A DNA stretch of 60,651 nt, filler included, from Jimgerdemannia flammicorona (taxonomy: Eukaryota), in the NCBI GenBank assembly GCA_003990765.1. It is 3 parts of 3 records of this genome, joined end to end, with 100 filler letters (N's around TTAATTAATTAA, not from the genome) between each part and the next. Parts side by side here need not be neighbours in the genome. Positions count along the whole stretch, not along the records: positions 40,505 to 60,651 come from RBNJ01001749.1; 2 more parts are not named here. One strand, 5' to 3'. The notes beneath the pieces are model-generated. The model worked only from the letters and a program-made list of their open reading frames with translations. It was not told where the DNA came from and searched no databases. The translations under genes and the position numbers were made by a program. This document shows, piece by piece, positions 3,303 through 60,651 of this stretch. How positions within the stretch are numbered: the first letter of the stretch is position 1; each line of letters opens with the position of its first letter.

Positions 3303-4820
3303 GGGCTAGTGAGAGGGACATCATTGGAATAATTGTCCCCACAGGAGAGGTGGTGCAGTATCTGGGCATCTTCCTCTCTGTATATGGATCTGTCTTACCA
3401 TAAGTGTGGTGGGAGAGAAGGGTGGCCATCTTGTGGGAGGCTCTTAGAAGTTGGGGGGGTCACCACATCTCCCTGGCAGGGTGGGTGTTGATTTTGAATA
3501 TCTACTAGTTCCCCAAGCTATGGTATATGGCCTATTACTTAGACTTCCTGGCTTGAGTAGTAAAGAGGCTGATAAAACTGACTAGAGATTGGATTTGGGC
3601 AGGGAGGAGGTCCCAGATCAGTTGGGATACTCTTGCAATACCAGTGGTTAGGGAAGAACTAGGCCTTATGGATTTCCCTAGGTAGCTGCATTATCTGTGA
3701 GCTTGGTGGTTGAAAAGGATGGTTGAACTGCAGGGAGGGAGTTGAGTACCACTGATGCAGAAGGTGTGGGAGATGAGATTTTTCCCTTGGGCATCCTCAG
3801 GGGATTTGCTCTCTCTGGTGGGTCTGAATGGAAGCCAACAGCTGCAGTATAAGGGCTTCTGGTGGAGGGTGGTAGATGGAGCATACTGGATAGGCCTACA
3901 CTGATAAGACAATGAGGAGAAGGTGCTGTGGGGCCCAGCTATATAGCAATGGGACCAACTTCTTCTGGGGGGGGTTCTGCTTGCTGGGTTTGATATTGGT
4001 GATAGAGTGAAGTATCAGAGGGGACTTGGTTAGGATCTATGGCCAAGTAGTTGGCAGGCAGTGAGAATTAGTGAGAAGTGGGACTGGGCAGGAATCTGGT
4101 CCTGGAGTACTGAGGTGTAGAGGTAGCTTCCTCCTAAGTTCTGGGTGATATGGTGGCAGATGCTGCAGAGGAATATCATGTTGAATTTCTGTACTAGGCA
4201 TCTGGTGGATGGTGGCTGATTAGATTGTGAGGAGTGTTATAATGTAGGACAAGTTGGGGGATTTATGCAAACACCAGAATATTGGCTGGGAGAGTGTGAG
4301 TTTCTGGGGGACTTTTGGATAGATATAGGAGACTGACTGGATGTGGAGAGGGACCAGATGGAGAGAGAGATCACTGGAAGGATTTGAAATCTCGATTAGT
4401 GGGAGGTGTCAGTAATGAGTGGCTCACTGTAGGGTGGGTTTTAGTAGTGTGGGTAGGGTTGGCTGGACATTGGCTCTTTGTTTTCAAGGAAAGATGATAG
4501 ATAGGTGTGCAAGAGAAGTTGTTAAGGTGGGAGGGGTTGTTGGGAGATCTGCTGACTGGGTGGTGGGTTGGTTGGGGTCCCCAGGGTGGGCAACATTGCC
4601 ATCTGGTGGAAGGGATCTGTGACCAGAGTAGTGGGTGGATAGAGATAGTGTTTGACAAAGTGGTCTTTCATTGAGAGGGAATGGGAGAGGGGTGAGAGGG
4701 AGGGAGCCCTCTAGGGGGATTGGGTAGGGGTGGGTACTGTATATTATATAGAGAATAGACAGATGTATTAATAAAGAAAGAAGTCTGAGTAACTATAAAA
4801 AAAAAAAAAAAAAAAAAAAA
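3303..4820 (+). mobile_element. 5'-truncated subfamily A/C LINE with poly(A) tail, inserted in B1
   Basis: Homologous to 12395-13885 and 59260-60651. AATAAA ~4770 and A-tail 4797-4821. TSD CAAGACATGCTCT at 3290-3302 and 4823-4835. Confidence 0.9.
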
Positions 4821-7800: not shown

Positions 7801-8010
7801 AACCAAAATACCCACCTGCTCATTCCAACCTATACTTCCATATCATTCTCTGCTCTAATCCTCACAATCTTGCTCCCCATAGGCTCGAATATCCTGATAC
7901 CTCTGAATCTTCAGCTATCAAAATAGATGCCTTCACTTCACTCCATCATGTAAACCATTGACATTTAATGATAAGATACATAGACTGTTTATCATCATGA
8001 ATAAAAATGT
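4821..8010 (-). mobile_element. Host LINE B1, decayed ORF2 (endonuclease and RT)
   Basis: Colinear with 14800-18045. Remnants GLSWEFWKEFQ, LNVYWLPK, PWSDH. Many stops. Confidence 0.88.
7994..8010. repeat. 17-bp target-site duplication ATCATGAATAAAAATGT (partner 13886-13902)
   Basis: Exact repeat on both sides of the LINE. The empty-site equivalent is visible at ~18030-18050. Confidence 0.95.
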
Positions 8011-8092
8011 CATCTCTTTCCAGTACCATTTGGGTTACACAACCTTTGGAAGGTACTTTCAACATCGTTTTCGGCAAAAAGAGACTAACAAC

Positions 8093-10117
8093 ATGGCAAC
8101 CGACAGACAACCTGAGGTGCATACTGGGCAGGGCAGCCCTAGCGCTTTTGACTGGCAGCAGGTGGGGAGGGGGCCAGGCCTGGGGGGAGGTATGAGGGGC
8201 CTGCTGGCAGGTGGACATAGAAGGGGTGGAGGAGGTGGTGGAGGATCAGGATCTGGGAGGGCAAGCTTCACGGAGATGGTGAAGGGGAGACAGCAGGCAT
8301 CGGGGCTGGAGGGCTGGCTGAAGAAGGGCAAGGAGACTGAGAGGGCAACAGTACCGGGGGGTGCGGCCCTTGGAAGGGGGGGCAGTGGAGCTGCAGGAGT
8401 AGTAACTGGGGGGGGTGTGACTACTGATGGTATTGGGACTGTCGATCTGGAAAAAAATCCAGATGTGATGGCTGATGGCGAGGCTGAGCGGCTGAGGCTT
8501 CGAAGACAAGGGGACTTGGCCAATGGTATAACGGGTCTGGCGGTAGCCCCATTACTCAAGAAATCGATTTCGGCATTCGCAGTCACACTATGCTTCCGGG
8601 ACCTGGCGGTGACAGCAAAAATGGTGCTGGGGCTCATCGCTAAGCAGGTGGCGGGTGCAGCATCTGTGAAGTTTCTGAAGGGACTGGAAGGAGTGGAGGT
8701 GGGTTTTGAGGAGGTGGCACTGCTGGAGGAGGCACTGAAGGTTGGACTGGTGGTTGGGGAGGTATGTATTCCAATGGCGCAGTACCTGAAGTGGGACCCC
8801 AGGGTGGTCCAACTGCTGGTGAAGGGAGTGCTGACAGTGACAGCAATGGAGACAAGGAAGAGAGTTGAGGATTTCATGGCGGAATATGGCGAGGTGGTAG
8901 ATATCGGGTTCAGGGTCTGGGAAGGGACCTCACTCAGGACTGGTGACGTGGATGTGAGGATTCGGCTGGCTGGGAAGAAAGCCACTGGGAAGGCAAGGGA
9001 TTGGCCTTTGGTGATGGTCTAGGGAGTGATCCTGTGTAAGGTGACAAGGGTGAAGGGGAGTGAGGAGGAGGAGGAGGATTTACTGGAAGCACTCGAAGAG
9101 CTGGGGGGTGCTGTGGAGAGGCGAGCGAAGGCTTGGGAGGCTTTTGAAGAGGCGACACACTTGGAGGTGGTGGATGGAAAGCGGATTCGAGTGACCAAGG
9201 AGCAGTGGGAAAGGGCTCAGAGGCATAAGAGGCAGAAGAAGTTGCTGGCCAAGCTGGATAGTGGACCAATGGGGGAGGTGAGCAAGGTGAAGAGTGCAGG
9301 GGGAGCTACAGTGAGTGTCTGGGCTGGCAAGGGGGAGGGGAAGGACAAGAAAGAGGTAGGGGAGGACAAGAAGAAGGCTGGGAAGGACCTGTATGTGGAT
9401 GGTATACTGGAGGTGTGGGAGGAGAACTGGGTGGGCTCCCCTACCCCTACCCCTCTCATCAGGCATAGCCTGGCTTCCTGGAATAGGGTGGTGGAAGATG
9501 TGCCAATGCGAGGGGTCCAGAGGGTACAATTCGGAGTTCCAGAGGTAGCGTATGGGGGACAGGTGGAGGCGGATGGCGAGGAGGAACTGGTGGATGTCCC
9601 GGAAGTATGGGATGAGTCTGTAAGTGCTGGAGCTGACACCACAATGTTGGATGGAGGGAGGCCGGCGACTCCGGGGGGGAAAGAGGTGGGGAACTTGCTT
9701 TGGATGTGCTGGATGATGAATAACCTGGCAGTGGAAGAGTTGGGGGAAGTAGACTTGCGAGTGATGAGTGATGAGCATTGGGCGAGAATACTGCAGGGGG
9801 ATGGCATGATGAAGGTATTGAAGGTAGAAATTCTTGCGGTGTACCTGGAGGAGGAAGGATATGAGGTGGATAAGGAGAGAGAGGAGGAGATGGCAGTTGT
9901 TGCTGGAGAAAGGGTTGAATACTGCTGGAACAAGCAACATGGACTACAGCTCTGGCAGGAAGCATACATCGAATACCGAGAGGAGTTTGAGGAGAAGGCC
10001 GATGGTGAGGTGAATGAACTGCTGGCTGGATTGGAGGCTCAGAGGGCTGATGAGGAGGAGGTGGCTGTGGAACATAATGTGGACAGGACACAGGAGGAGA
10101 TGAGCATAGAGCAGTAG
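8093..10117 (+). pseudogene. LINE ORF1 (Gly-rich N-terminus, putative RRM-like middle, acidic C-terminus) with one in-frame TAG at 9020
   Basis: ORFs 7958-9022 and 9026-10117 are in the same frame. Homologs at 54963-56987 and 18050-19910. Confidence 0.85.
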
Positions 10118-10150
10118 AGGAAGATTGATGACATCACATATATCATTAAT

Positions 10151-13100
10151 ATGAACAGTACAACCAACATTTTTTCTTTGAACGTGAATGGGTTACGGGG
10201 CGCTTCTCGAGTAGGAACATTTTTACTTGGATGAAGGGATTAGAGGCCGATCTCTTCCTCTTGCAGGATGTCCAGTGTGAAGATGACTCTGATAGGTTCG
10301 AATGGACGAAGGAATTGGGAGGTGCGGCAATTTGGAAGGGCAAGGTTGGGATTTTGGTTAGGAAAGGCAGAGGGGAGATACAGAATGTGCAGTGCTGGGG
10401 GGAGAGACTGGTCTGGGGAGAGTGGATTCGGGCAGGCTGGGAGCCAGTTATGGTTGGTTCCTGCTACTGCCCTGCAGTACGGGGTGAGAGGGTCGATTGG
10501 ATGAAAGGCTTACAGGAGAGTGGATTACTTGCGGAGGCCGGGGTGGATGTGCTAGGGGGAGATTTCAATATGGTTAGGGATATACTGTTGGATAGATCAG
10601 ATGGAGGACGAGGTGCTGAGAGCAGGAGTGGAGGGCTGGTGGCATGGGAGGATGTAGAGAGGCTGAGTGCGCTATTGGATGCTAGAAGGGAGTGCTGGGG
10701 GAGTAGGAGGGTCTATACACATTGGGCGGGGGGTCTGGGGACTAGAATCGATTGGATTTTGACAGCCTGCTGCTGGGGACTAGATGTTTGGAAATCATTG
10801 GAGGTGGAATGGTGTCCATGGTCGGATCACTGGGGGCTTTTGGGACAGGGGTGCTTTGGGGGAAGTGGGGATGGGCCTGGACATTGGTGCCTCAATTCCT
10901 CCTTGTTAGATGACAAGACCCGGTGGGATGAGTGGGCTAAAGACATTCAGCTGAGGGTGGAGAACTGGAGGCAGGAAGGGGCCACAGTTGGGACTCGGTA
11001 GATGAGGATGAAGGAAATGGCCAGGATTTACTGGAAGGAGGCTGGCAAGGAGGCAGGGAAGCAGCGAAAACAAAGAGTATGCTGGGCCTCTGCTAGATTG
11101 ACGAGGCTCCTGGAGGAGTGGGCAAGGCTGACGATGTTGGAGGGAGAAGAAGATTGGCGATTAATGAGGGTGAAAATGGAAGTTGGGGAACTTCAACAGG
11201 TGCTGCGGGAGGAGGAAGAGGCGAGAGTACAGAGCTTGGCAGCATGGCTTTGATGGCAGGATCTGGAGGAAGGAGAGAGGCCTTCCAAGCTTCTTACAAG
11301 GGCTCTTAGGGCAAGGTGGGTCCAGCAATAGTGGGAAGGGGTATTGGACTCTGATGGTGTACTGGTGCATGGTGTATAGGACATTCTTGGATCACTGAAG
11401 GAGCGATGGAGTGGATTGTGGAGTGAGGAGGAAGGTGGGGCAGATGCCGCTACAATTGAATGAACATTGGAGGATTGGTACCCACCACAAGTCGAAGGGC
11501 TAGGGGACCTGGTGATGCCTGTACAGGAGGAGGAGATCTACCAGGTTCTTGTCGCGACAATGTCTGGTATGGTACCTGGGGAGGATGGGCTGCCCTGGGA
11601 CTTTTGGAAGTGAATGGTTGAGGTCTCAGGGGTGATGGGAGAGATGACAGTATTGTGTGACCTTATTCTACAGACAGGTAGATGGGTGGGGGAGCAGGAC
11701 CTTGGGCTGGTGACGCTGCTCTACAAAAATAAAGGAAGGTGGGAGGATTGGAAGAACTGGCAGCCGATAATGCTACTAGATATGGACAGAAAGTTGGTAA
11801 CTAAGGTGGTGGTGGCGAGACTATAGAAGGTGGCCCAGCAAGTTGTGGGTGTTGAGCAGAGGGGATTTGTGGGTGGTCGGCTCATCAGGGATGGCACTGC
11901 CTGGGTGTATGGCATCATCAAAGGGGTGAGGGCATGTGGACTGGATGGGCGTCTAGTTTTCTTGGACCAGGAGAAGGCTTACGACTGGGTGCAGAGAGTC
12001 TGGCTGGAGAAAGTTTTGGATAGAATGGGGGTACCGCATCAATTCCGGTCAACAATGGTCAGCCTACTGGAAGGGAGTAGGGCTGCACTCATGTATAATG
12101 GACATAGAGGGGTAGCATTCCCCTTGGGAAGGGGAGTGCCCCAGGGGGACCTGTTGTCCCCCATTTTGTATGCTCTTTCTCTGGAACCACTTATGGACCG
12201 GATTAGGCAGAGGATAGTGGGGCTCTCTGTCTTTGGCATAGGATGGAAGGTTGGGGCCTTTGCTGATGACATGGTGGTGGGCTTGGGTTCAATTGCTGAT
12301 GTTGAGGAGCTCAAGAGGACTGTGGAGTGGTATGAGGAGCATTCTGGAGCTAAGCTGAATTGGTATAAGTGTGAGACGATGGTGCTTGGTAATGGTCTGG
12401 TGGAAGGGGAGGTTATAGGAACAATTGTCCCCACCGGTGAAGCAGTGCGGTACTTAGGTATCTACTTGTCAGTCTATGGGTCAGTTCTGCCCAAGCTTTG
12501 GTGGGAACAGAGGATTGGAATCTGGGAGGAGGCTCTGCAGAGTTGGGGGGGAAGATATTTCTCTCTGGCAGGGTGGGTCTCAATTTTGAATGTCTACTGG
12601 CTGCCAAAGTTGTGGTACCTGGCGTATCATCTGGACTTCCCAGCCTGGGTAGTGAAGAGATTGATGAAGTCGGCGAAGGGATGGATTTGGGCTGGCAGGC
12701 GGAGTCAGATTAGTTGGGAGACCTTGTCCCTACCAGTGGCAAGAGACAGCCTTGGGTTGGTTGACTTCCCAAAACGGTTACACTGCTTGAGAGCATGGTG
12801 GCTGAAGAGAGCAGTAGAGTTGAGAGGAGGTGGATGGGTTCCTCTGTTACAGAAGATATGGGAGAGGCAGGCATCACCAAGGGGCTCAACTGGTGATCTC
12901 CTCTCCTTGATTGGGCTTCAGAACACTGCCCAACTACGATATAAAGGTTTTTGGTGGGGAATTGCTGAAGGAGTGCACCGCATTGGCATTTGTTGGCAGG
13001 GGAATGAAGGTGAGGAGGATTGGGACCCGCCGATGTGGAGATGGGACCATATACTGCTGGGTAGTGCTTCTTTAGTTGAGTTCGACATTGGTGATGGTAT

Positions 13101-13806
13101 GGAATGCCAAAGGGGACCAGGCCAGGATCTGTGGCCTAGCAGTTGGCAAGGAGTTGGAATTGGCGAAGAGTGGAACTGACATAGTGTTTGGACCTAGAGC
13201 GCTGCAGTGAGAGCATGGCTGCCACCAAAGTACTGGGTGGTCTGGTGGCGCATGCTGCAGAGGAACATTATGCTCAATTTTCACTCAGGGCACCTGGTTG
13301 TAGGGGGTTGCCTCGACTGTGAGGAGTGCCATAATGTTGAGCAGGAGGGGGGTTATATATAGATGCCGGAACATTGGCTAGGAGAGTGTGAGGTGTTGGG
13401 GGATTTTTGGCAGACAATTGGGGATCACTTAGGGGTACAGAGTAGGAGTGATGAAGTGCAGGGGCGATAGGAGGACTTGAGGGTTAGATTGGTAGGGGGG
13501 ATAGGGAAGGAGTGGCTTACTTTAGGTTGGACTTTGGCAATTTGGGTGGGGTTGGCCAGTCATTGGCTATTTGTTTTTGAAGATGGGAGGAGGCAGAGCT
13601 TGGGGGACCGGCTGCTGTGATGGCATAGGCTTATGGAAGATACCTTGACAGGCTGGTGGCTAGGTTGGGGGATGCGAGGTGGTCGGAGGCATCGCTTGGT
13701 AGAGAAAATCTGTGGGCAAAGTGGGGGGAGAGTGGGGGTAGTTGGTGAAAGGGTGATTTTCATTCGTGAGGAAGTAGGGAGGGGCCCCCCGGTGGGGATT
13801 GGATAG
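10151..13806 (+). pseudogene. LINE ORF2 (APE endonuclease, reverse transcriptase, C-terminal Cys/His finger); frameshift near 10210 and several stops
   Basis: MNSTTNIFSLNVNGL, GDFN, RIDWIL, SDH, DQEKAYD, QGD, FADD, CLDCEEC...EHWLGEC. Ends PPVGIG*. Confidence 0.92.
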
Positions 13807-13885
13807 TGGGTCGGAATGATGTATATTTATTCATAGACTGGTAATAAAGGCGGAGTCCAAGTGACTTTAAAAATAAAAAATAAAA

Positions 13886-20069: not shown

Positions 20070-20153
<84 letters not shown>

Positions 20154-41555: not shown

Positions 41556-41556
41556 T

Positions 41557-41762
41557 ATTTTTTTATTTTATTTTATTTTTATTTTTATTTTTATAGTTAC
41601 TTAGATTGCTATATTTATTATTAAGTCAATCTAACCTATATATAATACAAAGCCTCAGCCCTATCAATCTCTCTAAGGGGATTCTCCCTCACTCTCTTAT
41701 AATTAAAGATCACTATCTTATTAACCACTATTACTCTCTTACTACTTTTCTACAAATCTACT
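41557..41762 (-). mobile_element. 3' end (poly(A)-like tail) of a decayed LINE that hosts the LTR elements
   Basis: T-rich tail 41557-41592, reverse AATAAA, and a degenerate ORF2 end. Resumes at 49366. Confidence 0.75.
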
Positions 41763-44467
41763 TGTAAGAGGGTTACTTATTAGGGTAACTGTTACATAGT
41801 TCTGCACACACTCCTTTCTCCACTACCTTACTGGTCATAAGGTTTGGTAGGTGACCTTCCAAGTCCCCTTTCCCCTATTATTACCCCTCTACCTTGGGTT
41901 GGTTTGCTGTGCCTATAGGGGCATGGTGGGAGGAGGGCAATGGTGATGAGTTGCCCCTTTATCGGTGTCGGATCAGTGCTTTCTCTACTTTTTCACAGAT
42001 TCTGGTACCTTTGGCTATATCTGGGGTATACCTGTTTTGGTGCAGTGCCTTCTTCCTTTTGCTGTTGCCAACAAGGTATTGTCTCAGTGTGTCTCGGGCT
42101 ATGTAGGGAGTCGGCCAACCTTGGGCATCAAGTGCTCAGTGTAGATTACCTGCAGATCCTCGGTACCTGTGGTGGGGCCCTCTGGCTTTGGCGAGCTTCC
42201 CGGCGAGCACAGTTCTGACATAGGTGACTGCTTTTCAGGTGTTATCAGAATGAGAGGGGAGATGGCCATCACAGATAGGAGGAAGGGCAATAATGGTGAT
42301 CCAGTAAGATACCAGGCTGGGGGCAGTCATTGGGGCTAGGGCAGGTGCTGCTTTGGTGGGGCCTTTTGATTGGTACGGCATGGTTAGGTGGTAGGTATCA
42401 CTATCAGCTTCTTTTGGCAGTTAGCGGGGTTGGGCCCCAGTCGTCAGAGGGGATCAGGAGGCCCGAGGCTACCCATTTCAGACATCTTGGCTACACTCAA
42501 CAGGAACCAGGAGCTGACATGGCAATGTGATCGAGGCCTGCAGGCTTGAGTAGTGGAGTATTGGGGGTTTCCTCCTGTCTCACGTGTAAGTCCTTTACTC
42601 ACCTCGACTGGGAGAACCAGGCCCTACCCATTGTGTTGTGCTTTGATGAGGGTTTTTTCTTTGCCTGTCATTCTCTTTGAGGTGGCAGGGGCTATTCTAT
42701 TTGGCTTGGACATAGCCTTGTATATACATTGGGTTCTCAGGCATGCACTTTCAGTCATTGGCATATAGTTGGATTTCTCCTGGTAGTAGGGAGAGCATGG
42801 TGCGCAGAATGAGGTGTGAGCCTATCAGCCCTGCTGCACCTGGTATGGTCGAGCTGCTGAACAATAGCTAGCCTAGGTTAATGGGGGGGCAGTGCTTAGT
42901 GGGTGGTGGGGGAGGGTTTTGGCCTATATAGTCTAGGTTCCCTTCCAATAAAAATCCGCAGGACATGAGTCCGTTAAAAAAAAAAAAAAAAAAAAAGTTA
43001 CATAGTTCTGAAAAGGTTTTCTAGAAGTTCTGAATATTCTGGAAGACTGTTTTCTTTAAGGTTAAGATCAATTTCATATGGAGTATATTCTCTATACTTA
43101 TCGATTTTAAGATTGAGTTAATATTTCAACCAAGTCCTTTTTCAGACATTCAGGATTTTCTATATTTCAGGAAGTTTAAGAAACTAAGACCAGCTTAGTT
43201 GAATTGGTATATTGCTGCAGACAATACTTAATTAGAAAATTTCATAATATAGTTAGGAGTGAGATCTAACAGAGAGTAGATTTACTTAAAAATAGTTTAT
43301 GAGTTATTAAATAGATTTATTTACTATTCATGATATTGCTATACTAGGAGTAGTTGTGTAAAGAGATATTGTAGAGAAGTGTTCAGAATTGTTCTTATCT
43401 ATTCAAGTCTATTTTAGTCTGAGATTCTGAGGTTTGAGGAAGGGGGTATTTATACTAATAAGAGGCTATCTAGACTAGGCTAAATATGGATATAGTACTT
43501 AGTGCCTTGCTGAGTTAGAATGTAATCATATAGTATAAGAGTGAAGTGATATATCAAGAGATTGTCTGACTGCTGAGTCAGTTTACAGTTATATTATACA
43601 AGACTAATCTAACTATACTAATGACTGCTAAGCTATCTATAGATTTAGACTCTATCTGAGTAGTCTTTAATGATATCACTATTGATAACATTATCTCTGG
43701 TAAGGTCTGAGCAGTTTTCTGACTTCTGATATCATCAGTTTTAAAGATATTGTCATCTCTGTCTCTTGCAAAATTAAAGCTGTCCTCAGTGGTGGTAGTT
43801 GTACAAGAATAACAGGTCTTAGTTCTCTTTTTTTTTTTTTTTTTGAACTGTTAGTATATTTGTGAGGACTGACCATCTTTATCTAGGACAAGGGCTCTTA
43901 TTGTCATGGCTGGGGGTTCAAACCTCTCAGAAATGATATTTTCTGTAATCTGAGACAATTTCTAGTAGTAATATCTATTATATGGATAGACTTGAGATTA
44001 GTTTCAATAATGTCAGCTTTCTTGAGTTCAGATGAAGTATCTGTTATTCTCCAATAGAGGTGATACAGATAGAGTGAACAGAGTTATTCAAATGCATTTT
44101 GCTTCTACTAAGTAATGAGGTCTTGTATAGTTATAGTATATCTTAGTCTTGAGTTGATAAGTGTGGTTCATGAACCTTTGATAGATGAGATAGAATTCTT
44201 CTCATTTTAGTTTAAGTTTGGTACTTCAGTTTCCTTTTGTAATAGTACAGTATACTAAGACTAGTTGTCTTAATGAGTAGAGATTCAGGGTCAGTCTTTA
44301 GTTGTAATACTTCTTCTGATATTTTTGTATTTTAGTAGTAAGTCTTCATGCTTACTGGCATATTTTATATAATAGGTAATCTCTTATATTATAATCTTAT
44401 ATATGATTTCAAAATTGGTTCTGAGGGTAATATATAATTTTGGTGGCTTGGAGGTTATATACTTATA
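41763..44467 (-). repeat. 3' LTR (~1.5 kb net, interrupted by the 1.19-kb retroposon)
   Basis: Colinear with 47854-49365 after removing 41805-43010. Confidence 0.92.
41805..42996 (+). mobile_element. Non-autonomous ~1.19-kb poly(A) retroposon (SINE-like element X), copy 1
   Basis: Perfect 14-bp TSD GTTACATAGTTCTG (41791-41804, 42997-43010), A-tail 42976-42996, absent from the sister LTR. End-to-end match to 53697-54877. Confidence 0.92.
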
Positions 44468-46000: not shown

Positions 46001-47853
46001 AAGGTACTTGGCTGAGTAGGTTCAGGATTTTGGAGTATCCAAGAGGTAGATATAGAGAGAGCTCAAGATGTTTCATACTTGGGTTCTTCTTTCTTAGTCT
46101 AAGTTTTTTTCTTGTTGTTGAATTGTCTTCAAGGCAGAATTGGTCCAGCTATCAGAATTTTCTTGACCATAGTCTTGATTCTTACTAGGCACTATTATTG
46201 ATAATCACAACTAACTAGGCATCCTTGTTCTTGGATTTTTCTTGTGAGTTATTCAGGTAGTACATATATCAAATAAATGGTCTGCTCTTATACTATTTCA
46301 TGCTTTATCATTGGTGATATATCCTAGACCAATGGTGTTTAGGAGTGACTCAAGTTTTGTACAGAAGGTTTTAAATTTCTCCTTGTTATATATATCAAAT
46401 TTGAGGTTGTAGAGTTTGACTCAAGATTCAGCAATCATGGTTTCACTGTAATATTGAGTAATTATGAGTTGTTTGATTCCAAGGGCTATAGGGTGGTCTC
46501 CATATTCTGGAGTATTATTTGCTGCATTTTAGGCAACTACTGCAGGTCAGGTGTCCTATGTAAGGGATTTTTTAAAGAGAGTTTACCACCATTCTTTAGC
46601 AGGTTCTTAGAAGAATGTAACAACTCAGTAGATATAAGCTATGGTAGTAGTAAAGAGTTGTTCCAGAGTGTGGTCTTGATTGTTTATCAGAAGGTAGTTA
46701 GCAACTTGCTTGTTAGTTCATTGATTGGCTTCAAAATTAGTATCAACTATACTAATAAAGCTTTGGACTTCTTGTGCAGTACCATTGAAGGTAGGTAGGC
46801 TCAGACTTTTTGTTAGTCAGACTTGTTCAGCTAAGGTAGTAATAGTTGCTATCATTATGACTACTAGGGCTATAAGATCTAGAATCTATTGGTTTGCCAT
46901 ATTGTTTACTGAAGGTAGTTGAACTACTAGTAATAGTATTACTAGTATAACTTGAGGTACTGATGTAGAGTGTGATGGTATTCTTTGAGTCTGTGTAAGT
47001 TACTAGAGTAATAGTTGTGGGTCTGGAGTAAGAGCTTGATAGATAGCTGTCTGTTACTATATAGGTGTGTATTTTGTTCTGATAGAGATATATCTTCTTT
47101 AGTAGTATATTTGGGATTGAATTTACTGAGATACTCCTTCTTCTCTTTGGTTTGGTCCTCATATAGTTGGGTTTACTTGGATAGAATCAGTTGTATATTG
47201 TATTTCAGATGGGCTTAATTCAAAATCAAGTTCTGTTTCAGTATTAATTTCAGATTCAGGTGGGACTATAGCTGGGCCTACTTCTGGTTTGGAGTCAGGT
47301 TGTTGATGAAGGATTTCTCTTACTTCTCCTTTAAGAATATGGTAGGCCTTGCAATTCTGAAAGTAATAGTATAAGGCAGTCTTAGTTCTTATATAGTGAA
47401 AGTCAGTAAAGTTGAGTCACTTAGCTATGGAGACTTAGGTTTTATGAGGAACTAAGGCTAGAAAGATAGCTGCTGGTTATCCTAGATTGCTTGGGTTTGT
47501 AGAGCTGACAAAACTCTTATTGAGAAGAGTAAAGAAGACTTCTATAAGACCTTCTTTATCTTGACTTATAGGATGTAAAGCAAGGAGTTTGGTATAAAGG
47601 ATTTTGCCTATTTGCTGATTTAATTAGAGTACTTCTTTTTGTAGATAAAGTCTATCCTACTTGTTGTAGGTATAAAGGTCAAATTGTTCTTATATATTAG
47701 GTTCAATTCTCTCTAGATTGTCAGATAGTTCAGAATAAATTCCAGTTTAGAGATTGGGCTTTATATCAACTTGTAAGAATTCTTATAGAGGTTTATAGTA
47801 GGATAAGGAAGTATCTTGAAGCAGAATTGAATTATAAACTATTACTACTAAGT

Positions 47854-49365
47854 TGTAAGAGAGTTACTTATTAGAGTAACTATTACATAGTTCTGGAAGA
47901 GTTTTCTGAAAGTTCTGGATATTCTGGAAGACTATTTTCTTTAAGGTCAAGATTAATTTTATATAGAGTATGTCTTCTATACTTATTGATTTCAAGATTA
48001 GATTGATATCTCAACTAAAGTCCTTTTTCAGACTAGTTCTGAATGTTTAGAATTTTCCATATTTCAGAAAGTTTAAGAAACTAAGACTAGCTTAGTTGAA
48101 TTGGCATATCATTGCAGATAATACCCAATTAGGAAATTTCATAACATAGTTAGGAGTAGGATCTAACAGAGAGTGAATTTACTTAAGAGTGATTTATAGG
48201 TTATTAAATAGATTTATTTGCTATTTATAATATTACTATACTAAGAGTAGTTACATATGTAAAGAGATATTATTGGGAAGTATTCAGGATTGTTCTTATC
48301 TGTTTGAGTCTGTTTTAGTCTGAGATTCTGAGGTCTAGGAGAGGGGATATTTATACTAATGAGAGGCTATCTGGACTAGGCTAAATATGGATATTACATT
48401 TAGTATCTTGCTGAGTTAGAATGCAGTCATATAGTATAAGAGTGAAGTGATATGTCAAGAGATTATCTGACTGCTGAGTTAGTTTACAGTTATATTGTAT
48501 AAGGCTAATCTAACTATACTAATGACTACTAAGCTATCTATAGATTTAGAATCTGTCTGAGTAGTCTTTGATGATATCACTATTGATGACATCATCTCTA
48601 GTAAGGTCTGAGCAGTTTTCTGACTTCTGATATCATCAGTTTCAAAGATGTCATTACCTCTGTCTCTTGCAAAATTAAAGCTATCTTTAGTAATAATAGT
48701 TATATAAGAATAACAGGTCTTAGTTCTCTTTTTTTTTTTTTAGACTATTGGTACATTTGTGAGAACTGGCCATCCTTGTCTAGAGTGAGGACTCTCATTA
48801 TTGCAGCTGGGGGTTCAAACCTCTTGGAAATGATATTTTCTATAATCCAAGGCAATTTTTAGTAGTAATATCTATTATGTAGATAGACTTAAGATTGGTT
48901 TTGACAATGTCAGCTTTTTTGAGTTTAGATGAAGTATCCATTATTTTCCAATAGAGGTGATACAGATAGAGTGAATAGAGTTGTTCAAATGTATTTTGCT
49001 TCTACTAAGTAATGAGGTCTTGTATAGTTGTAGTGTATCTTGGTCTTGAGTTGATAAGTATGGTTTATGAATCTTTAATAGATGAGATAGAGTTCTTCTC
49101 ATTTTGGTTTGAGTTTGATACTTTAGTTTCCTTTTGTGATAGTATAGTATACTAAGACTAGTTGTCTTAATGAGTAGAGGTTCAGGGTCAGTCTTTAGTT
49201 GTAGTACTTCTTCTAATATTCTTATATCTTAGTAGTAAGTTCTCATACTTGCTGGCATATTTTATATAACCAGATGATCTCTTGTTTTATAATCTTGTAT
49301 ATAGTTTTGAAATTAGTTCTGAAGGTAATATGCAATTTTTGTGGCTTGGAGGTTATATGCTTATA
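47854..49365 (-). repeat. 5' LTR (1512 bp)
   Basis: Starts TGTAAG, ends CTTATA, and is followed by TSD CTACT. Confidence 0.92.
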
Positions 49366-53278: not shown

Positions 53279-53696
53279 ACTCTCTCCTTCTTAGCTTTCG
53301 ACATTCTTGTCAGGGCCTTCTAATTTTGTTCTAGTATTGTTACACCATTTGAGAGATCAAAAGTCTAGTAAAGTCCATTTTTCTCAAAAAGTGGCATGCT
53401 CATAGTATAGTTGCCTAATGTATTGGATTCACATATTAAAGTGTTGTGTGTTCAATGCCATGTACCAGAAGTGATTCTGATATCATTCACTGCTGGAGAA
53501 TTTCCTCTAAGGAATCTTCTTAAATATCTATGCCTTGTTTCCCACTAATAATATGGGAAAAATAGGCTTACTTTCAGTTTTGCTATTTTTCCAGAGAGTC
53601 AGTATTCTAGTCTTGTTTTGCTGAGTTCTTGATTTTTGATAATTATAGTGTTCAGGAGGATAATATATAGTTTGTATAGACAGGCACCTTTCTTCT
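53279..53696 (-). mobile_element. 3' internal region of the second LTR element (truncated by later insertions)
   Basis: PPT-proximal ~70 bp match 44468-44540. Confidence 0.65.
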
Positions 53697-54877
53697 GCAG
53701 CTCCTTTCTCTGCTATCTTACTGGTCACAAGGTTTGGTAGACAACCTTCTGAGTCCCCTTTCCCCTAATATTACCACCTCTACCTTGGATTGGTTTGCTG
53801 TGCCTGTAGAGGCATGGTGGGAGGAGGGCAATGGTGATGAGTTGTCTCTTTATTGGTGTCAGATCGGTGCTTCCTCCACTTTTTTGCAGTTTCTGGTACC
53901 TTCGGCTACATCTGGGGTGTGCCTGTTTTGGTGCAGCATCTTCTTCCTTTTGCCATCGCCAACAAGGTGTTGTCTCGATGTGTCTCAGGCTATATAGGGA
54001 GTCGGCCGACCTTGGGCATCAAGTGCTCAGTATAGGTTACCTGCAGGTCTTCGGTGCCTATGGTGGGGCCCTCTGGCTTTGGCGAGCTTCTGGTGAGTAT
54101 GGTTCTGGCATAGGTGACTGTTTTTTGGGTGTTGTCGGGATGGGAGGGGAGATGGCCATTACAGATAGGAGGAAGGATGATAACAGTGAACCAGTAGGGT
54201 GCCAGGCTGGGGGTGGTCATCGGAGCTGGGGCAGGTGCTGCTTTGGTGGGGCCTTTTGATTGGTGCGACGTGATTAGGTGGTAGGTGTCACTATCAGCTT
54301 CTTTTGGTGGTCAGCGGGGTTGGGCCCCAGTCGTCAGGGGGGGTCAGGAGGCCTGAGGCTACCCATTTCAGGCATCTTGGCTGCACTCAACTGGAACTGG
54401 GAGCTGACATGGTAACGTGATCGAGGCCCGCAGGCTTGAGTAGTGGGGTATTGGGGGTTTCCTCCCACCTCACATGTAAGTCCTTTACTCATCTCAACTG
54501 GGAGAACCAGGTCCTACCCACCATGTTGTGCTTTGATGAGGGTTTTTCCTTTGCCTGTCATTCTCTTTGGGGTAGCAGGGGCTATTCTATTTGGCTCGAG
54601 CATGGTCTTGTACATATGTTGGGTTCTCAGGTGTGCGCTTTCAGTCATTGGCATATGGTTGGGTTTCCCCTGGTGGTAGGGAGAGCATGGTGCACAGAAT
54701 GAGGTGCAGGCTTTTTTTAGCCCTGCTGCGCCTGGCATAGTCAAGCTGCTGGACAATAGCTAGCCTAGGTTAATGGGGGGGCAGTGCTTGGTGGGTGGTG
54801 GGGGAGAGTTTTGGCCTATATAGTCTAGGTTCCCTTCCAATAAAAATCCATGGGACATGAGTCCGTAAAATAAAAAA
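53697..54877 (+). mobile_element. Non-autonomous ~1.18-kb poly(A) retroposon (element X), copy 2
   Basis: TSD AGGCACCTTTCT(T/C)CT at 53682-53696 and 54878-54892, short A-tail, and the same 5' start as copy 1. Confidence 0.9.
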
Positions 54878-54892
54878 AGGCACCTTTCTCCT

Positions 54893-57800
54893 ATACAATT
54901 TACATTACACAAAACTTCAAGCAATGGTTTTCGATATAACTCGGAGAAAAGGTATTATAAGAATGTCATCAAGCAAGAGTTCTGATGGGCATGCTGGGTT
55001 AGGTGGACCTGGGGCTTTTGGCTGGCAGAAGGTGGGGAGAGGTTATGGACTGAGGATGGGGGCTTTTGGAGAGTCGAAGGTGGGAGAAGGCTCTGGAGGT
55101 AGATCAGTGTCTGGTGGATCTAGAGGAAGGTCTAGTCCCTCCAGCTTTGCTGACAAGGTGAAGGTGGGTGGATGGTCTACTAGGACAAGGGCTGGCACTG
55201 CTGAGGGGAAGGGCAAGGCTAGTGTCAGGAGGGGAAGTGGCCCTTAGAGGGGAGTGGTGAGCATAGGGGCTGGTGGTGCTGTGGCTGGGGGTGTGACTAT
55301 TGATGGGAGGTGACAGGGGATCAGGAAAAAAAAAGAGATATGACAGCTGATGGTAGAGTGGAGCAGGGGTTCCCGATGCAGAAGGAGGATCTGGCTGATA
55401 GTGTAATGGGGCTGGCAGTGGTGCCATTACTCAAGAAATCAATCTCAGAGTTTGCGGTGACACTGTGCTTCCAAGGCTTAGGGATGACAGTGAGGATGGT
55501 CTTGGGGCTTATCTCGAAGTAGATGGCTGGGGCAGCTTTGGTGAAATTCCTGAAGGGTCTGGAGGGGGTTGAGGTGGGCTTTGAGGAGGCGGGCCCACTG
55601 GAAGAGATGCTGAAGGCTGGAGTGGTAGTTGGGGAGGTGGTGGTCCCTATGGTGTGCTGTTTGAGGTAAGACCCCAAGGTGGTATAGCTGCTGGTGAAGG
55701 GGGTGCCCACAGTGATGAAGGAGGAGACAAGGAGGAGGGTAGAGGAGGTGATGGTGGAGTATGGAGATGTGGTGGATATTAGCTTCCAGGTGTAGGAGGG
55801 GACAATGATTAGGATAGGTGATGTTGATGTCAGGATTTGGCTGGTAGGGAGGGAGGCTACAGGGAAGGCAGGTGACTGGCCCTCAGTGTTAATGTGGGAG
55901 GCCTTCATTTGTAAGGTGTCAAGGGTGAAGGAGAGTAAGGAGGAGGAGGAGGATTTTTGGAAGTATTGGAGGAGATGAGTGGTGTGGTGGAATGGCAGAC
56001 AAAGGCCTGGAAGCTCTATGAGGAGTTGACACACCTGGAGATTATAGAGGGGAAGTATATCCACACTGACAAGAGGTAGTGGGAGTGGGCCCAGGGGTGC
56101 TTGAGGCAGAGAGAGCTCTTAGCAAGTTGACAGGAGGAGAGAAAAGGAAGATAGATGGGGCTGAGGGGTCTGGAGGTATTGAAGCCAGTGTATAGGCTAG
56201 CAGAGGCAGAAAGGAGGCAGTGGTGATGGAAGAATGGGTTGCGAAGGTACTGGGCAAGGATCCCTATATGGATGGTACTTTTGAGGTCTGGGAGGAGGAG
56301 TCAGATAGCACCCCCCCCCTACTTATCAGGAGGGGCCTAGTGGGGTGGAGAGGGGCAGCAGAAGATGTACCAATGCAGGGAGCCCAGCGAGTTACCTTTG
56401 GGGTCCCAGATGTGACAAAAGGGAGTCAGGTGGTGGCAATTGGTGAGGATGAGCTGGTGGATGTCCCAGAGGAGGAGTGGAATAAGGATGCCAGTGTAGG
56501 TACTGATACTATGATGCTGGATGCAGGGCAGCTAGGGACCCCTGGAGGGAAGGAGATTGGGAATCTGCTATGGATAAGCAAGGTGATAGATAACCTTGCA
56601 GCTGAGGTATTGGGGGAAGTGGATCTGAGAGTCATGCCAGAGGAATACTGGGCATGGATTCTGCGAGGTGATGGAGTGGTGGAGGTGCTAAAGATGGAGA
56701 TTCTTACAATATTACTGGAAGAAGAGGGTTATGAGGTGGATGAGGTGAGGAAGGCAGAGATAGTAGTTATCACTAGTGAGCAGGCTGCCTACTGTTGGGT
56801 GGAATGCCATGGTTTGCAGTTCTGGCAGGAGGCCTATAGGGAGTATCAGGAGGACTTTGAGGAGAAAGAGGATGGGGCAATGGTTGAACTTCTGGAGGGA
56901 TTGGAGGCACAGGGAGCTGAGAAGAAGGAACTGGCTGCAGAACACATCTTGGATTTGGCACAGGAGGACTTGAGTGCAGATTTGTAGAGGAGAGGTTTAA
57001 TCTTTAATAATATTTCTCATGAACAGTACAACTAACATTTTCTCTCTCAATGTGAATGATCTTCGAGAATCTGAGCAGTGTAAGAACATTTTTACATGGC
57101 TAAAGGGATTGGAGGCTGATCTCTTTTTACTGCAAGATATATAGTGTGAGGATGAGGATGATCAGGTAGAATAAACTAGGGAATGGGGTGGGGCTACTGC
57201 TTGGTTTAGAAAGGTAGCGATTCTGATAAAGAAGGATAGAGGAGAGTTGGAGAGAATCAAGAGCTAGGGAGATTGCTTGGTCTGGGGTGAATGGCACTGG
57301 CTAGGGTGGGAATCAGTGTGGGTGGGCTCTTGTTACTGCCTGGCGGCTAGGGGAGAGAGGATTGTGTGGATTAAGGAGCTACTGGAGGAGGGCATTCTCT
57401 TAGAAGAAGGGGTTGATGTTCTTGGTAGTGATTTTAATATGGTTCGAGATTTGCAGCTGGATAGGACTAATGGAGGAAGGAATGCAGGTGGGAGGAGTGG
57501 TAGTCTAGATGTGTGGGAGGAGGTGGAAAACCTTAGCTCCTTAGGGGATATGGGCTGAACATAGTGGGGCGACACCAGGGTCTACATGCACTGGGTAAAT
57601 GGCTTAGGGACAAGGATTGATTGGATTCTGACAGCTAAATGTTGGGGTGCTGATATCTGGAAGACTTTGGAGGTGGTGTGGTGCCCATGGTCTGATCACT
57701 GGGGACTGTTTGGGCAGGGGCAGTTTGGGGGAAGTGGAGATGGACCCGGACATTGGTATCTTAACTCCTCCCTGCTGGCTGAGAAGGGGTTGTGGGATTC

Positions 57801-60651
57801 ATGGGTAGAGGACGTCCAGGCAAAGATTACTTTGGAGGTGGGAGAGTTTATCTGTGGGTGTCCATTGGATGAGATTGAAGGAGGCTGCGAGAGTTTATTG
57901 GGGTGGAGCTGGTAGAGAGGCAGGGAGATAGAGGAGGAGGTGAATACAGTATGCTTCAAATAGGCTGAGGAGATTGCAGTTAGAGTGGGTGGATTTGCTT
58001 ATATCTGATGAGGTGGAGGATTGGAGGTTAAAGAGGGTGAAATTGGAAGTTGTAGAACTACAACAGGTGTTGAGAGAGGAGGAGGAGACTCATATGCGAG
58101 GAATGGCAACCAGGCTAAGATGGCAGGGGCTTGAGGAGGGAGAGCGGCCTACTAGGTACTTATCTAGACTCCTCAAAGCCAGATGGGTGAGACATTGGTG
58201 GGATGGGATCTTGAATACTGAGGGAGAGTTGGTGTATGATATATAGCAGATCCTGGAAGTATTGAAGGAGAATTGGTGGGGTCTGTGGAGTGAGGAAGAA
58301 GGAGATGCTAATGTGGAGGTGATTGGTGACACACTGGAGGAGTGGGAGCCACCACAGATAGAGGGGCTGGGTGACTTGATCTTACCAGTCCAGGAGGAGG
58401 AGATCCAAGGAGTCCTGGTAGCAACTAAGCTTGGGACAGTGCCAGGAGAGGATGGGTTACCGTGGGACTTCTGGAAGAAGATGGTGGAAGTCCCTGGGAT
58501 GCTGGGAGAGATGGCGGCCCTCTGTGACTATGTTCTTCTAAGTGGCATGTAGGTTGGAGAGCAGGACTTAGGGCTGGTGGCCCTATTGTATAAAGATAAT
58601 GGCTGGCATGAGGATTGGAAGAACTGGAGGTCAATCATGCTTCTGGATATAGATCAGAAGTTGGTGACTAAGGTGATTATTGCAAGGCTACAGAAGGTTG
58701 CTCAACAGGTGCTGGGTGAGGAGCAGTGGGGCTTTGTAGGAGGTAGACTTATCAGAGATAGAACTGCCTGGGTGTATGGCATTATTGAAGGGGCCCAGGC
58801 CTGCAGACTAGATGGTAGACTGGTTTTTTTGGACCAGGAGAAGGCCTATGACCATGTTCGGCGGGTTTGGCTGGGCAAGGTACTGGACAGAATTGGTATT
58901 CTGCCACAGTTTCAGGCCTCTATGTTGAGTTTGTTGGAAGGAAGTAGAGCAGCGCTGATGTATAATAGTCACAGGGATTTGGCATTCCCCTTGGAGAGAG
59001 GAGTCCCTCAAGGGGACCCGCTGTCCCCTATTCTTTATATACTCTCCTTGGAACCTTTGATGGACAGGATCCATAAGAGGGTGACTGGGCTCTCTGTGTA
59101 TGACGTGGAGTAGAAGGTGGGGGCCTTTGCAAATGATATAGTAGTTGGACTTAGGTCAGTAGTGGATGTAGAGGCTCTTCAGGAAACAGTGGAGTGGTAT
59201 GAGGCACACTCTGGAGCAAAGCTCAACTGGCATAAGTGTGAGATGATGGTGCTGGGGAATGGGCTAGTGGGAGGGGATGTCATTGGAACAATTGTCTCCA
59301 CAGGAGAGGTGGTGCAGTATCTAGGTATCTTCCTCTCTGTATATGGATCAGTTCTACTACAAATATGGTGGGAGAGGAGGGTGGATATTTGGAGGGAGGC
59401 TCTGAAAGGTTGGGGGGGTCATCACATCTCCCTGGCAGGGTGGGTGGCGATTCTGAATGTATACTGATTCCCCAAGCTGTGGTATGTAGCATATTACTTA
59501 GACTTTCCTGTTTGAGTGGTGAAGAGACTAATGAAACTGGCTAGGGATTAGATTTGGGTAGGTAGAAGGGCCCAGATCAGTTGAAATATCCTTGTTGAGC
59601 CAGTGCTTAGGGGAGGCCTGGACCTTGTTGATTTCTCTAAGCATCTACACTACCTGTAAGCTTGGTGGTTGAGAAGGGCTATTGATCTACAGGGTGGAGG
59701 TTGGGTACCATTGATGAAAAAGGTGTGGGAGATGAGAGTCTCCCCCCAGGGGTCCTCAGGGGATCTACTCTCTTTAGTAAGTCTGAATGGAAGCTGACGG
59801 CTATGGTATAAGGGCTTCTGGTGGGGAGTGGTCGATGGGGCACACTGGATAGGCTTGCACTGGCATGGCAATGAGGGGGAGGTAGTATGGGGTCCAGCTA
59901 TATGGAGATGGGACTGTCTGCTTCTAGGGGGAGTTCCACTTGCTGAGTTTAATATTAGAGATGGAGTGGAGTATCAGTGGTGAATTGGCCAGAATCTTTG
60001 GCTGAGTAGTTGGCAGGTAGTGAGGATTGGTGAGGAGTGGGACTGGGCAGGGATCTGGTCTTGGAGTACAGAGGTGCAGTGGTGGCTTCCTTCCAAGTTC
60101 TGGGTAGTGTGGTGGTGAATGTTGTGGAGGAATGTTATGTTGAACTTCCATGCTGGACATCTGATAGATGGTGGTCAGCTGGATTGTGAGGAGTGTTATA
60201 ATGTTTGGCAAGTTGGGGGATTTGTACAAATGCCAGAACATTGGCTGGGGGAGTGTGAGGTGCTGGGGGACTTTTGGATAGCTGTAGGGGACCAGCTAGG
60301 GGTTGAGAGGAGACCAGATGGAGAGAGAGGTCGCTGGGAAGAACTGGAATCTAGACTTGTGGGAGGTGTCAGCAATAGGTGGCTTACTGTAGGGTGGGTT
60401 GTGGCAGTGTGGGTGGGGTTGGCTGGACATTGGCTCTTTGTTTTTGAGGAGGGGTGATAGATAGAGATACAGGAGAAGTTGTTGAGATGGGAGGAGTTGG
60501 TGGCAGATTTGCTGATGGGGTGGTAGATTAGATGGGGACCACAAGGTAGGCAACATCGCCGTCTGGTGGAAGGGATCTGTGAACAGAGTGGTGGGCAGGT
60601 AGAGATAGTGTTTGATAAAGTGGTCTTTTGTCAAGTAGGGGTAGGGGGGGG
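54893..60651 (+). mobile_element. Near full-length decayed A-related LINE (subfamily C; ORF1 ATG 54963 to ~56987, ORF2 ATG 57019 to contig end)
   Basis: Colinear with 8093-13760. MNSTTNIFSLNV, SDFN, RIDWIL, SDH, DQEKAYD, GVPQGDPLSP. Many stops. Confidence 0.93.

Follow-up and report, generated by a model that had tools for sequence, protein, structure and literature searches.

The window, meaning the whole stretch of DNA analysed here (60,651 nucleotides from Jimgerdemannia flammicorona, GCA_003990765.1), contains two copies of a polyadenylated element, referred to as X, together with several LINEs. Copies 1 and 2 of X are independent full-length insertions, each with its own TSD and A tail. 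The features on which the argument draws are the following, with the strand given where one is assigned.

Element X and the LINEs of the window

41805..42996, plus strand: X copy 1, whole insert (6 junction letters, 1165-nt body, A21 tail), with TSD and empty site fixing its bounds
41791..41804, no strand: upstream TSD of X copy 1, GTTACATAGTTCTG, exact 14 bp, single in the paralogues at 47853-47901 and 51217-51258
42997..43010, no strand: downstream TSD of X copy 1, GTTACATAGTTCTG, exact 14 bp
41811..41860, plus strand: 5' head of X copy 1, resembling the 5' termini of LINEs D and F; proposed internal promoter or start-site module
42947..42952, plus strand: AATAAA of X copy 1, the only one in this copy, 23 nt upstream of the A tail
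42961..42972, plus strand: terminal hairpin of X copy 1, GGAC-ATGA-GTCC, a 4-bp stem present in both copies
42976..42996, plus strand: A21 tail of X copy 1
47853..47901, plus strand: empty-site paralogue of the host repeat split by X copy 1 (second paralogue at 51217-51258)
53694 (or 53697)..54876, plus strand: X copy 2, insert (4-7 junction letters, body from 53701, short interrupted A tail)
53682..53693, no strand: upstream TSD of X copy 2, AGGCACCTTTCT, 12 bp exact, or 15 bp to 53696 with one C/T transition, by direct reading
54877..54888, no strand: downstream TSD of X copy 2, AGGCACCTTTCT, at the 5' terminus of LINE F
3303..4821, plus strand: LINE B, 5'-truncated, tail A25, TSD of 13 bp (3290-3302 and 4823-4835); comparator for TSD length and tail
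8010..13885, plus strand: LINE D, full-length candidate partner, with APE and RT domains, AATAAA and an A-rich tail
7994-8009 and 13886-13901: TSD of LINE D, 16 bp
about 8093-10117, plus strand: ORF1 of LINE D
from 10150, plus strand: ORF2 of LINE D, with APE and RT
54880..60651, plus strand: LINE F, of the LINE D family (about 68% identical), exiting the window, with the head motif at its 5' terminus

The two copies are found where a sequence-only reading of this DNA had located them, are colinear, and share a start base directly after their TSDs. Their common sequence begins at 41811 in copy 1 and at 53701 in copy 2, and is preceded by unlike junction letters (6 nt and 4-7 nt, respectively). 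Compared by blastn, positions 7-1182 of copy 1 are 87.8% identical to 53701-54878 over 1179 columns, and 133 of the 139 substitutions are transitions, the remaining 6 being transversions. The same reading had assigned a TSD of 14-15 bp to each copy; this holds for copy 1, with its exact 14 bp, and for copy 2 it must be reworded as 12 bp exact, or 15 bp when one transition is allowed. These lengths of 12-15 bp are in line with the 13-16 bp of the local LINE TSDs (13 in LINE B and 16 in LINE D).

At the 3' end, both copies present an AATAAA followed, after about 25 nt, by the A tail, and the AATAAA of copy 2 (54839-54844) occupies the place homologous to that of copy 1. The tail abuts the downstream TSD in both copies, as A21 in copy 1 and as a brief A run with interruptions in copy 2. 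The end composed of AATAAA, hairpin and poly(A), as earlier described, is present, with a hairpin that amounts to a 4-bp stem. A larger 3' fold, with a z of -2.58 in copy 1 and 0.00 in copy 2, was not kept, and the 4-bp hairpin alone was retained. Two copies in neutral decay hold no signal for covariation. No internal or tandem repeats were detected in X at E below 0.5, the A tail excepted.

Both paralogues of the host repeat split by copy 1 read through one copy of the 14-mer without interruption, and so represent the empty site of this insertion (for copy 1 alone). Since two paralogues give the empty site, the observation goes beyond chance. The idea of a long non-autonomous element inserted by LINE-type target-primed reverse transcription is accordingly supported by the TSDs, the A tails, the empty site of copy 1, the lack of coding capacity, and an apparently high-copy family with a common 5' end. 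Copy 2 adjoins the 5' end of LINE F. A putative 18-bp TSD of a minus-strand LINE (14279-14296 and 18425-18442) was left out of account: a 403-nt stretch with 72% similarity ends there, and the match may reflect homology instead of duplication.

Coding capacity and the 5' head of X

The absence of a long ORF conserved between the copies, already claimed from the sequence, was borne out by ORF comparison and by searches of Pfam and of protein collections. Checks on a corrected sequence and with frame-wise profiles revealed no coding capacity and no Pfam family: the two copies, merged and corrected for deamination, give a longest ORF of 102 aa, whereas 300 shuffles average 143, and no family was matched at E 0.01 or better in 12 of 12 frame translations. 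RT, APE and other domains are absent from every frame, as judged by Pfam and by comparison with the LINEs of the window, and no parent ORF or protein homology that would mark a processed pseudogene of a coding gene was found for X. A sense ORF starting about 130 nt into the element stays in frame for about 92 codons in both copies and reaches 142 aa in copy 2, with a translation rich in W, C and G, as expected from base composition. Among 1.84 billion protein representatives, X gave four matches at E 0.001 or better, three of which are singletons of 68-111 aa on contigs of 571-903 nt. The fourth is an unrelated Mycena protein.

Regarding the type of head, ARAGORN predicted 0 tRNAs and Rfam gave no match near threshold, in agreement with the claim that X has no tRNA head. 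Copy 1 had no Rfam match at E up to 1, and those of copy 2, mir-1270 (E 0.55) and LhrA (E 0.73), are attributable to chance, since their 19.5 and 14.4 bits fall far below the gathering scores, which are 90 and 100. Rfam likewise detected no ribozyme in X. No pol III A or B box was found within 1 mismatch of the box consensus strings, and the sense strand carries 8-9 T runs of at least T4, beginning with one near base 180.

Over its first 50 nt or so, X is similar to the 5' terminus of LINE D, which is full-length. For copy 1, this comparison has a score of 43, with shuffles averaging 22.2 (z 4.9, 0/2000 shuffles). Among 1939 LINE D windows, the four that score highest lie at offsets 0-9, and, in the reciprocal test, the best of 369 X windows also lie at offsets 0-9. 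A four-way alignment of the heads of both X copies and of LINEs D and F agrees with this similarity, which is lower in the other pairs (copy 2 with LINE D, z 2.75 and p 0.0135; copy 1 with LINE F, z 2.55; copy 2 with LINE F, z 3.0) and concerns a short, CT-rich stretch. The head motif occurs 4 times against 0.45 expected, in a post hoc count.

The remainder of the element is different. Comparison by blastn with the LINEs of the window revealed no colinear likeness to LINE bodies or 3' UTRs (best E 0.21), and the 3' ends of X are unrelated to three LINE tails (z -0.6 to 1.6, with LINE-LINE controls at z 9.6 and 3.5). Protein-level likeness elsewhere in the window, searched by tblastn, was also absent (best E 0.16). 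The statement that X has no similarity to the local LINE bodies therefore stands for bodies and 3' tails, but has to be amended for the terminal 50 nt or so at the 5' side. This LINE-common head lends indirect support to an internal promoter in X, of which it would probably be the location.

The X family in soil metagenomes

Contigs from four soil-metagenome runs cover the element, with 1855, 210, 118 and 174 contig pieces aligning to the stretch at 80% or more likeness. The one candidate RNA run, available as contigs, owes that label to a tool's guess. The first of these figures refers to metagenome contigs of one soil run and is not a genome copy count, the copies in the window being two. 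The pieces of this run (run X1) are distributed among likeness classes of 99+ (188), 95-99 (464), 90-95 (840) and under 90 (363 of the 1855). Contig depth is 0 at 41600-41707 in 4 of 4 runs and at most 0.36 at 41708-41761, and rises to 11-116 in the bin 41762-41815. Loose contig ends with unlike flanks are located at 41811 and 41817, and they differ from one another, with a pair agreement of 0.55 in run X3. The cover thus begins at one 5' base. In run X2, a contig with a depth of 27 has a block resembling X upstream of base 1, so that longer or nested copies of X may exist.

Small shares of X words appear in 20 runs from 14 studies, most of them soil metagenomes. A transition-tolerant 34-letter X pattern had 0 matches among metagenome contigs. 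Two metagenome loci with an exact 20-mer (L001 and L002) were rejected, their likeness to X being confined to a 20-21-mer and thus ascribed to chance.

Proposed cycle, rival readings and known systems

The most probable explanation, held with good though not full confidence, is that X represents a family of non-coding, non-autonomous non-LTR retroposons of a Jimgerdemannia-like (Endogonales) fungus, propagated by the cycle proposed here. As far as the sequence can indicate, X is best read as a pol II-type, polyadenylated retroposon with a LINE-like 5' head that would be trans-mobilised through its poly(A) tail. RNA polymerase II would start at base 1 of X, by means of an internal promoter in the LINE-common head of about 50 nt, and the transcript would be cleaved and polyadenylated about 25 nt past the sole AATAAA, as the layout of the sequence suggests. 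The ORF2 protein of a LINE would then take the polyadenylated RNA in trans, presumably recognising the tail and not a LINE-like 3' sequence, because X has no 3' similarity to the local LINEs. Target-primed reverse transcription up to the transcript's 5' end would finally produce the TSD of 12-15 bp and the few junction letters, which is the outcome observed. Co-residence, TSD length and the common head point to the LINE D/F type as the candidate partner of X. The L1-like label given earlier to the local machinery was examined as far as the APE and RT domains.

Many of these characteristics, namely the TSDs, the A tail, the full length and the AATAAA, would be expected equally if X were a non-coding RNA of the host, or an mRNA that has diverged strongly, copied again and again from one master gene by the LINE machinery into a processed-pseudogene family of inert copies. 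The lack of coding capacity would also fit, and the 1.1-kb WEIRD RNA of Magnaporthe provides a fungal precedent of similar size (PMC2104539). This origin is nevertheless unlikely: the LINE-terminus-like head argues for descent from a transposon, X is represented by a very large number of pieces, whose likeness varies widely (from 99+ to under 90 in run X1), and the window contains no parent locus. Moreover, WEIRD is described solely as fused to LINEs and never solo (PMC2104539), whereas X stands alone with its own TSDs.

It is very unlikely that a longer autonomous element, lying outside the window and regularly cut short at one position, has X as its 3' part. The first base is identical in the two copies and follows the TSD directly in each, this start aligns with the genuine 5' terminus of a LINE of full length, as a transcript start would, and the loose ends at 41811 and 41817 are unlike each other. 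RT, APE, other domains and LINE similarity are, in addition, missing in any frame of X, although the upstream X-like letters of the run X2 contig, and the frequent 5' truncation of local LINE insertions, such as LINE B, would be compatible with such an element. Scarcely probable is the option of a small peptide or protein, restricted to the lineage and encoded by X as ROPIP1 is by Eg-R1, in which case X would not be strictly non-coding. The sense ORF shared by both copies and the peptide reported for Eg-R1 (PMC6022598) speak for it, but ORF length in X is under the shuffle expectation, the composition of the translation is predicted by that of the bases, the only relatives are the three short singleton ORFs on tiny contigs, and Pfam offers no family.

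The non-coding retroposon X of this Jimgerdemannia-like fungus counts as a new family but does not found a new class, its kind being placed by the published descriptions of Eg-R1/Egh24 and NARTc/RIME. The notion of an undescribed fungal SINE-like class is not supported, since pol II-type, AAUAAA-bearing elements without boxes are already known in Blumeria (PMC6022598). These are Eg-R1, Egh24 and BG_Non-LTRs, characterised there as 'SINE-like' non-autonomous non-LTR elements with a conserved 5' region (PMC6022598). Eg-R1 and Egh24 share with X a fungal host, a non-autonomous non-LTR nature, an abundance that in X is apparent, and the lack of a long ORF, together with features inferred or demonstrated in Blumeria, namely the lack of A/B boxes, internal T runs and the AAUAAA signal (PMC6022598, PMC4641428). 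The pol II-type transcription of the Blumeria elements has been inferred or demonstrated (PMC6022598, PMC4641428), and the RNA and peptide of Eg-R1 were demonstrated experimentally (PMC6022598), whereas the pol II type of X is predicted from its sequence. The 5' region is alike among the non-LTR elements of one genome both in the Eg-R1 type (PMC6022598) and in the head that X has in common with LINEs D and F, which is short, and weaker for copy 2. Insertions of Eg-R1 are described as having no genomic poly(A) stretches (PMC6022598), while copy 1 of X has A21.

In trypanosomes, a LINE and its non-autonomous partner have a common 5' promoter head, and the first 77 nt of L1Tc (Pr77) constitute an internal pol II promoter with the transcription start at +1 (PMC1874656). 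The pairs NARTc/L1Tc and RIME/ingi resemble the case of X in that a non-autonomous element and an autonomous LINE have their first tens of bases in common (PMC1874656). Rather tentatively, and with less than even confidence, the head of X may be seen as a portable internal pol II promoter or start-site module, taken from a LINE by a non-coding parasite in an early-diverging Mucoromycotina fungus. If true, the head of X and the LINEs would parallel the Pr77 system of trypanosomes, as a counterpart that arose independently in a fungus, and the X family a sizeable contributor to the unusually large genomes of Endogonales, that of Jimgerdemannia being about 240 Mb (PMC10386755).

Other systems are similar in part. 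In the WEIRD RNA and the MINE chimeras, LINE machinery has copied a fungal RNA that is non-coding and about 1.1 kb long, with direct repeats of 10-20 bp, but WEIRD is joined to a truncated LINE by template switching (PMC2104539), while X stands alone and has a tail and TSDs of its own. Classical SINEs, including Mg-SINE (PMC2104539) and the AfuSINEs, are also non-autonomous, LINE-dependent and TSD-flanked. As a classical SINE, X was rejected: it has no small-RNA head, no pol III head or boxes, a body of 1165 nt (1.17 kb), T4 runs, and a 3' tail unlike those of the local LINEs and not derived from them. The SVA elements of hominids are, like X, kilobase-scale, non-coding, polyadenylated, TSD-bearing and mobilised in trans by LINEs, but they combine SINE, VNTR and Alu-like parts, and X has no SINE part, internal repeat or tandem repeat (tail excepted).

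The host of Eg-R1 is an ascomycete and that of X belongs to Mucoromycotina, the two being likened by description and not by sequence. Eg-R1, with a length of about 0.7 kb, is shorter than X. NARTc and RIME have kinetoplastid hosts and are much shorter than X; the 3' end of RIME is common to ingi, whereas X has no LINE-common 3' end, and an HDV-like ribozyme is found within the Pr77 region.

X was not found by title or abstract among the papers listed on Jimgerdemannia transposable elements or on Endogonales repeats and genome size, and a search for Mucoromycota non-autonomous elements, SINEs and LINEs retrieved no paper. No general principle is altered by X, because pol II-type LINE parasites and common promoter heads are already known elsewhere. 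It does supply the LINEs of a mycorrhizal lineage that is little studied and swollen by transposons with a defined partner of non-autonomous type, and its LINE-common head is a concrete candidate for the internal promoter of fungal LINEs. The inclusion of X in repeat libraries would avoid its misannotation as hypothetical genes. Three short ORFs from X-like contigs are already present in protein collections.

Two insertions and their target sites

X, a retroposon family of about 1.2 kb, is present in the window as two copies. The sequence-only reading had described these as colinear, and reading both stretches together with their alignment confirmed it (87.8% identity over 1179 columns, blastn). 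With a cut-off of E 0.001, blastn showed no third copy in the window; its remaining matches are A or T runs.

41805-42996: X copy 1 insert, ending in A21
41791-41804 and 42997-43010: target duplication of X copy 1, an exact 14-mer, GTTACATAGTTCTG
53694 (or 53697) to 54876: X copy 2 insert, with a short, interrupted A tail
53682-53693 and 54877-54888: target duplication of X copy 2, AGGCACCTTTCT, 12 bp exact, or 15 bp with one C/T transition allowed

The insertion point of copy 1 is 40 bp into an AT-rich LTR-like repeat, of which two further copies (47853-47901 and 51217-51258) are uninterrupted and carry the 14-mer GTTACATAGTTCTG once; they are the empty site of copy 1 and fix the boundaries of the insert. 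In the soil-metagenome run named X1, three contigs go from 41804 directly into the sequence after 43010. The sequence common to both copies begins at 41811 in copy 1 and at 53701 in copy 2. Before it stand junction letters that differ between the copies, 6 in copy 1 and 4-7 in copy 2, as is common where the 5' side of a non-LTR insertion meets its target. The repeat bearing copy 1 has, a short way upstream, a reverse-oriented LINE 3' fragment (41558-41696) with a T-rich run, about 75% like positions 4694-4821 of the resident LINE B.

A non-coding body with a LINE-like head

No ORF beyond about 92 codons is common to both copies. When a script merged them, preferring C to T and G to A wherever they differ, open frames reached 102 aa at most; in shuffles the longest frame averaged 143 aa, with a 95th percentile of 205 (n=300). 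None of the 12 frame translations, with the letter X at stops, reached E 0.01 with any Pfam family, and the two weakest rows (E 0.059 and 0.16) fell far below curated cut-offs. A sense ORF of 149 aa in copy 2 matched 1 protein among 24 candidates, and the read-through sense frame gave 4 matches at E 0.001 or better among 1.84 billion representatives. Three of these, each a singleton 68-111 aa long from a contig of 571-903 nt, probably represent ORFs predicted on further copies of X; the fourth, a Mycena armadillo-type protein (E 9e-5), is unrelated. As far as can be tested on its sequence, X is non-coding.

A pol III SINE is ruled out by several nulls together with the 8-9 runs of T4 or longer on the X sense strand: ARAGORN found 0 tRNAs in the entire window, Rfam returned no row for copy 1 and, for the region of copy 2, two at chance level, and no A or B box lies in X within one mismatch of the consensus strings. 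A composite like SVA is likewise ruled out, tandem and internal repeats being absent. Nor is X a piece of the local LINEs, the best matches being E 0.21 (blastn against the masked window) and E 0.16 (six-frame tblastn). Several LINEs in the window carry endonuclease (Exo_endo_phos) and RVT_1 domains.

3303-4821: LINE B, truncated at its 5' end; tail A25, duplication 13 bp
8010-13885: LINE D, full length, with a 16-bp duplication, ATCATGAATAAAAATG, at 7994-8009 and 13886-13901
8093-10117: LINE D ORF1, about 670 aa, interrupted by one in-frame stop, rich in Gly/Glu and ending in an acidic tail
from about 54880: LINE F, of the LINE D family

The ORF2 of LINE D contains APE and RT, and the element also carries an AATAAA and has an A-rich tail. 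Its ORF1 reached E 0.01 with no Pfam family, the two rows given (E 0.011 and 0.033) being under their cut-offs. Minus-strand LINE pieces at 1-3302, 4836-8009 and 13902-14296 appear, from self-comparison and target duplications, to be one LINE split twice by the nested LINE B and LINE D. The LINEs (1-20153 and 54880-60651) show strong strand asymmetry: their sense strand has a GC skew of about +0.4 to +0.5 (G 0.38 and C 0.13-0.15) with no matching T excess, which looks more like a coding strand that is intrinsically G-rich than like one-sided deamination.

The most useful new detail on X is its LINE-like 5' head: over ~50 nt, the start of X is similar to the start of LINE D, and a common block is visible in a four-way alignment of the heads of both X copies, LINE D and LINE F.

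Head comparisons by transition-tolerant score against shuffles
Pair; score; shuffle mean (sd); z; shuffles reaching the score, or p
X copy 1 and LINE D; 43; 22.2 (4.2); 4.9; 0/2000
LINE D and LINE F (LINE control); 42; 20.4 (4.1); 5.3; 0/2000
X copy 2 and LINE D; 34; 22.4 (4.2); 2.75; p 0.0135
X copy 1 and LINE F; 28; 17.6 (4.1); 2.55; p 0.018
X copy 2 and LINE F; 30; 17.7 (4.1); 3.0; p 0.0095

The likeness is placed at the termini: the copy 1 head against 1939 LINE D windows, and the LINE D head against 369 X windows, both have their top four at offsets 0-9, and for the copy 2 head window 0 ranks 8th and offset 3 first among the 1939. A head motif written from the four sites occurs nowhere else in the window, giving 4 places against 0.45 expected, a post hoc count that shows only that the block is no common low-complexity word there.

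The downstream flank of copy 2, met during the search for its empty site, aligns with the LINE D start. The insertion point of copy 2 falls among the first dozen or so bases of LINE F, at the very 5' end of that LINE (53682-54900). The LINE F terminus resembles the head of X itself, and this adjacency may have arisen by chance or through a 5' joint assisted by homology.

At the 3' end, X is unrelated to three LINE tails (z -0.6 to 1.6), against z 9.6 and 3.5 for the LINE-LINE controls. A terminal 4-bp hairpin is kept in both copies; small stems can be drawn by eye near LINE tails too, and since stems of this size are common by chance, the hairpin was given no weight.

Proposed mobilization and known counterparts

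X combines full-length copies, a target duplication of LINE-like length, an A tail and, roughly 25 nt before that tail, its single AATAAA. It would be transcribed by pol II from base 1, using an internal promoter in the LINE-like head, and its RNA would be polyadenylated and taken in trans by the LINE ORF2 protein via the tail, the presumed recognition point because X is without LINE-like 3' sequence.

Blumeria Eg-R1 and Egh24 are described as lacking A and B boxes, with internal T runs and AAUAAA, and as polyadenylated (PMC6022598). In trypanosomes, the first 77 bp of L1Tc form an internal pol II promoter starting at +1, a head also found in the non-autonomous NARTc and in RIME/ingi (PMC1874656). 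X differs from both the Blumeria elements and trypanosome NARTc/RIME in host lineage, size and the absence of a LINE-like 3' end. The sequence-only reading, which suggested that X may be an undescribed fungal SINE-like class, was right in outline but not in claiming a new class, the kind being known in Blumeria and trypanosomes: X is a new family of a kind already described. Literature searches that reached neither Repbase nor Dfam nor the original paper on Endogonales genomes turned up no description of an X-like element in Endogonales or Mucoromycota.

Distribution, composition and surroundings

Sampled X words turn up in 20 listed runs (14 studies, chiefly soil metagenomes), and their share nowhere exceeds 0.20. 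Four of these runs, aligned to the window at 80% or more likeness, gave 1855, 210, 118 and 174 contig pieces; those of run X1 comprise 188 at 99% or more, 464 at 95-99%, 840 at 90-95% and 363 under 90%. In all four, depth is 0 at 41600-41707, at most 0.36 at 41708-41761, and climbs in the bin holding base 41811; contigs with unlike upstream letters stop at 41811 and 41817. Depth is back up after 43004 because the flank itself is a repeat. This pattern, drawn from the best-supported rows of short metagenome contigs with 207 further loose ends beyond those listed, is consistent with a high-copy family whose members share a 5' end. Against so simple a picture speaks a contig of run X2 (depth 27, at 41811-41941) with 30 letters upstream of X base 1, 24 of which, by eye, equal X at 41928-41957, an X[118-147]-like block; it could reflect nested copies or a longer X subfamily.

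The window is eukaryotic and fungal, the ORF at 33733-35505 being 99% identical to a Cas1p-domain protein under the source name Jimgerdemannia flammicorona, with other Mucoromycota next in rank. CpG observed/expected is about 1.1 in the genes at 22-39 kb, 0.06-0.37 in repeats and 0.24-0.26 in X. Transitions make up 133 of the 139 substitutions between the X copies, many, not all, at CpG, a pattern that fits cytosine deamination of repeats as a possible cause. The region 39500-53600 is decayed (about 30% GC, CpG observed/expected 0.06) and includes:

41762-44472, 47853-49372 and 51217-51947: LTR-like repeat, three copies
44631-45176, minus strand: aspartyl-protease ORF

With 52% GC inside this region, X looks younger than its surroundings. 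A T82 run followed by two 44-N blocks occupies 20072-20253, and a second pair of such blocks fills 40405-40504. Both pairs are gaps in the assembly or masked stretches, beside repeats.
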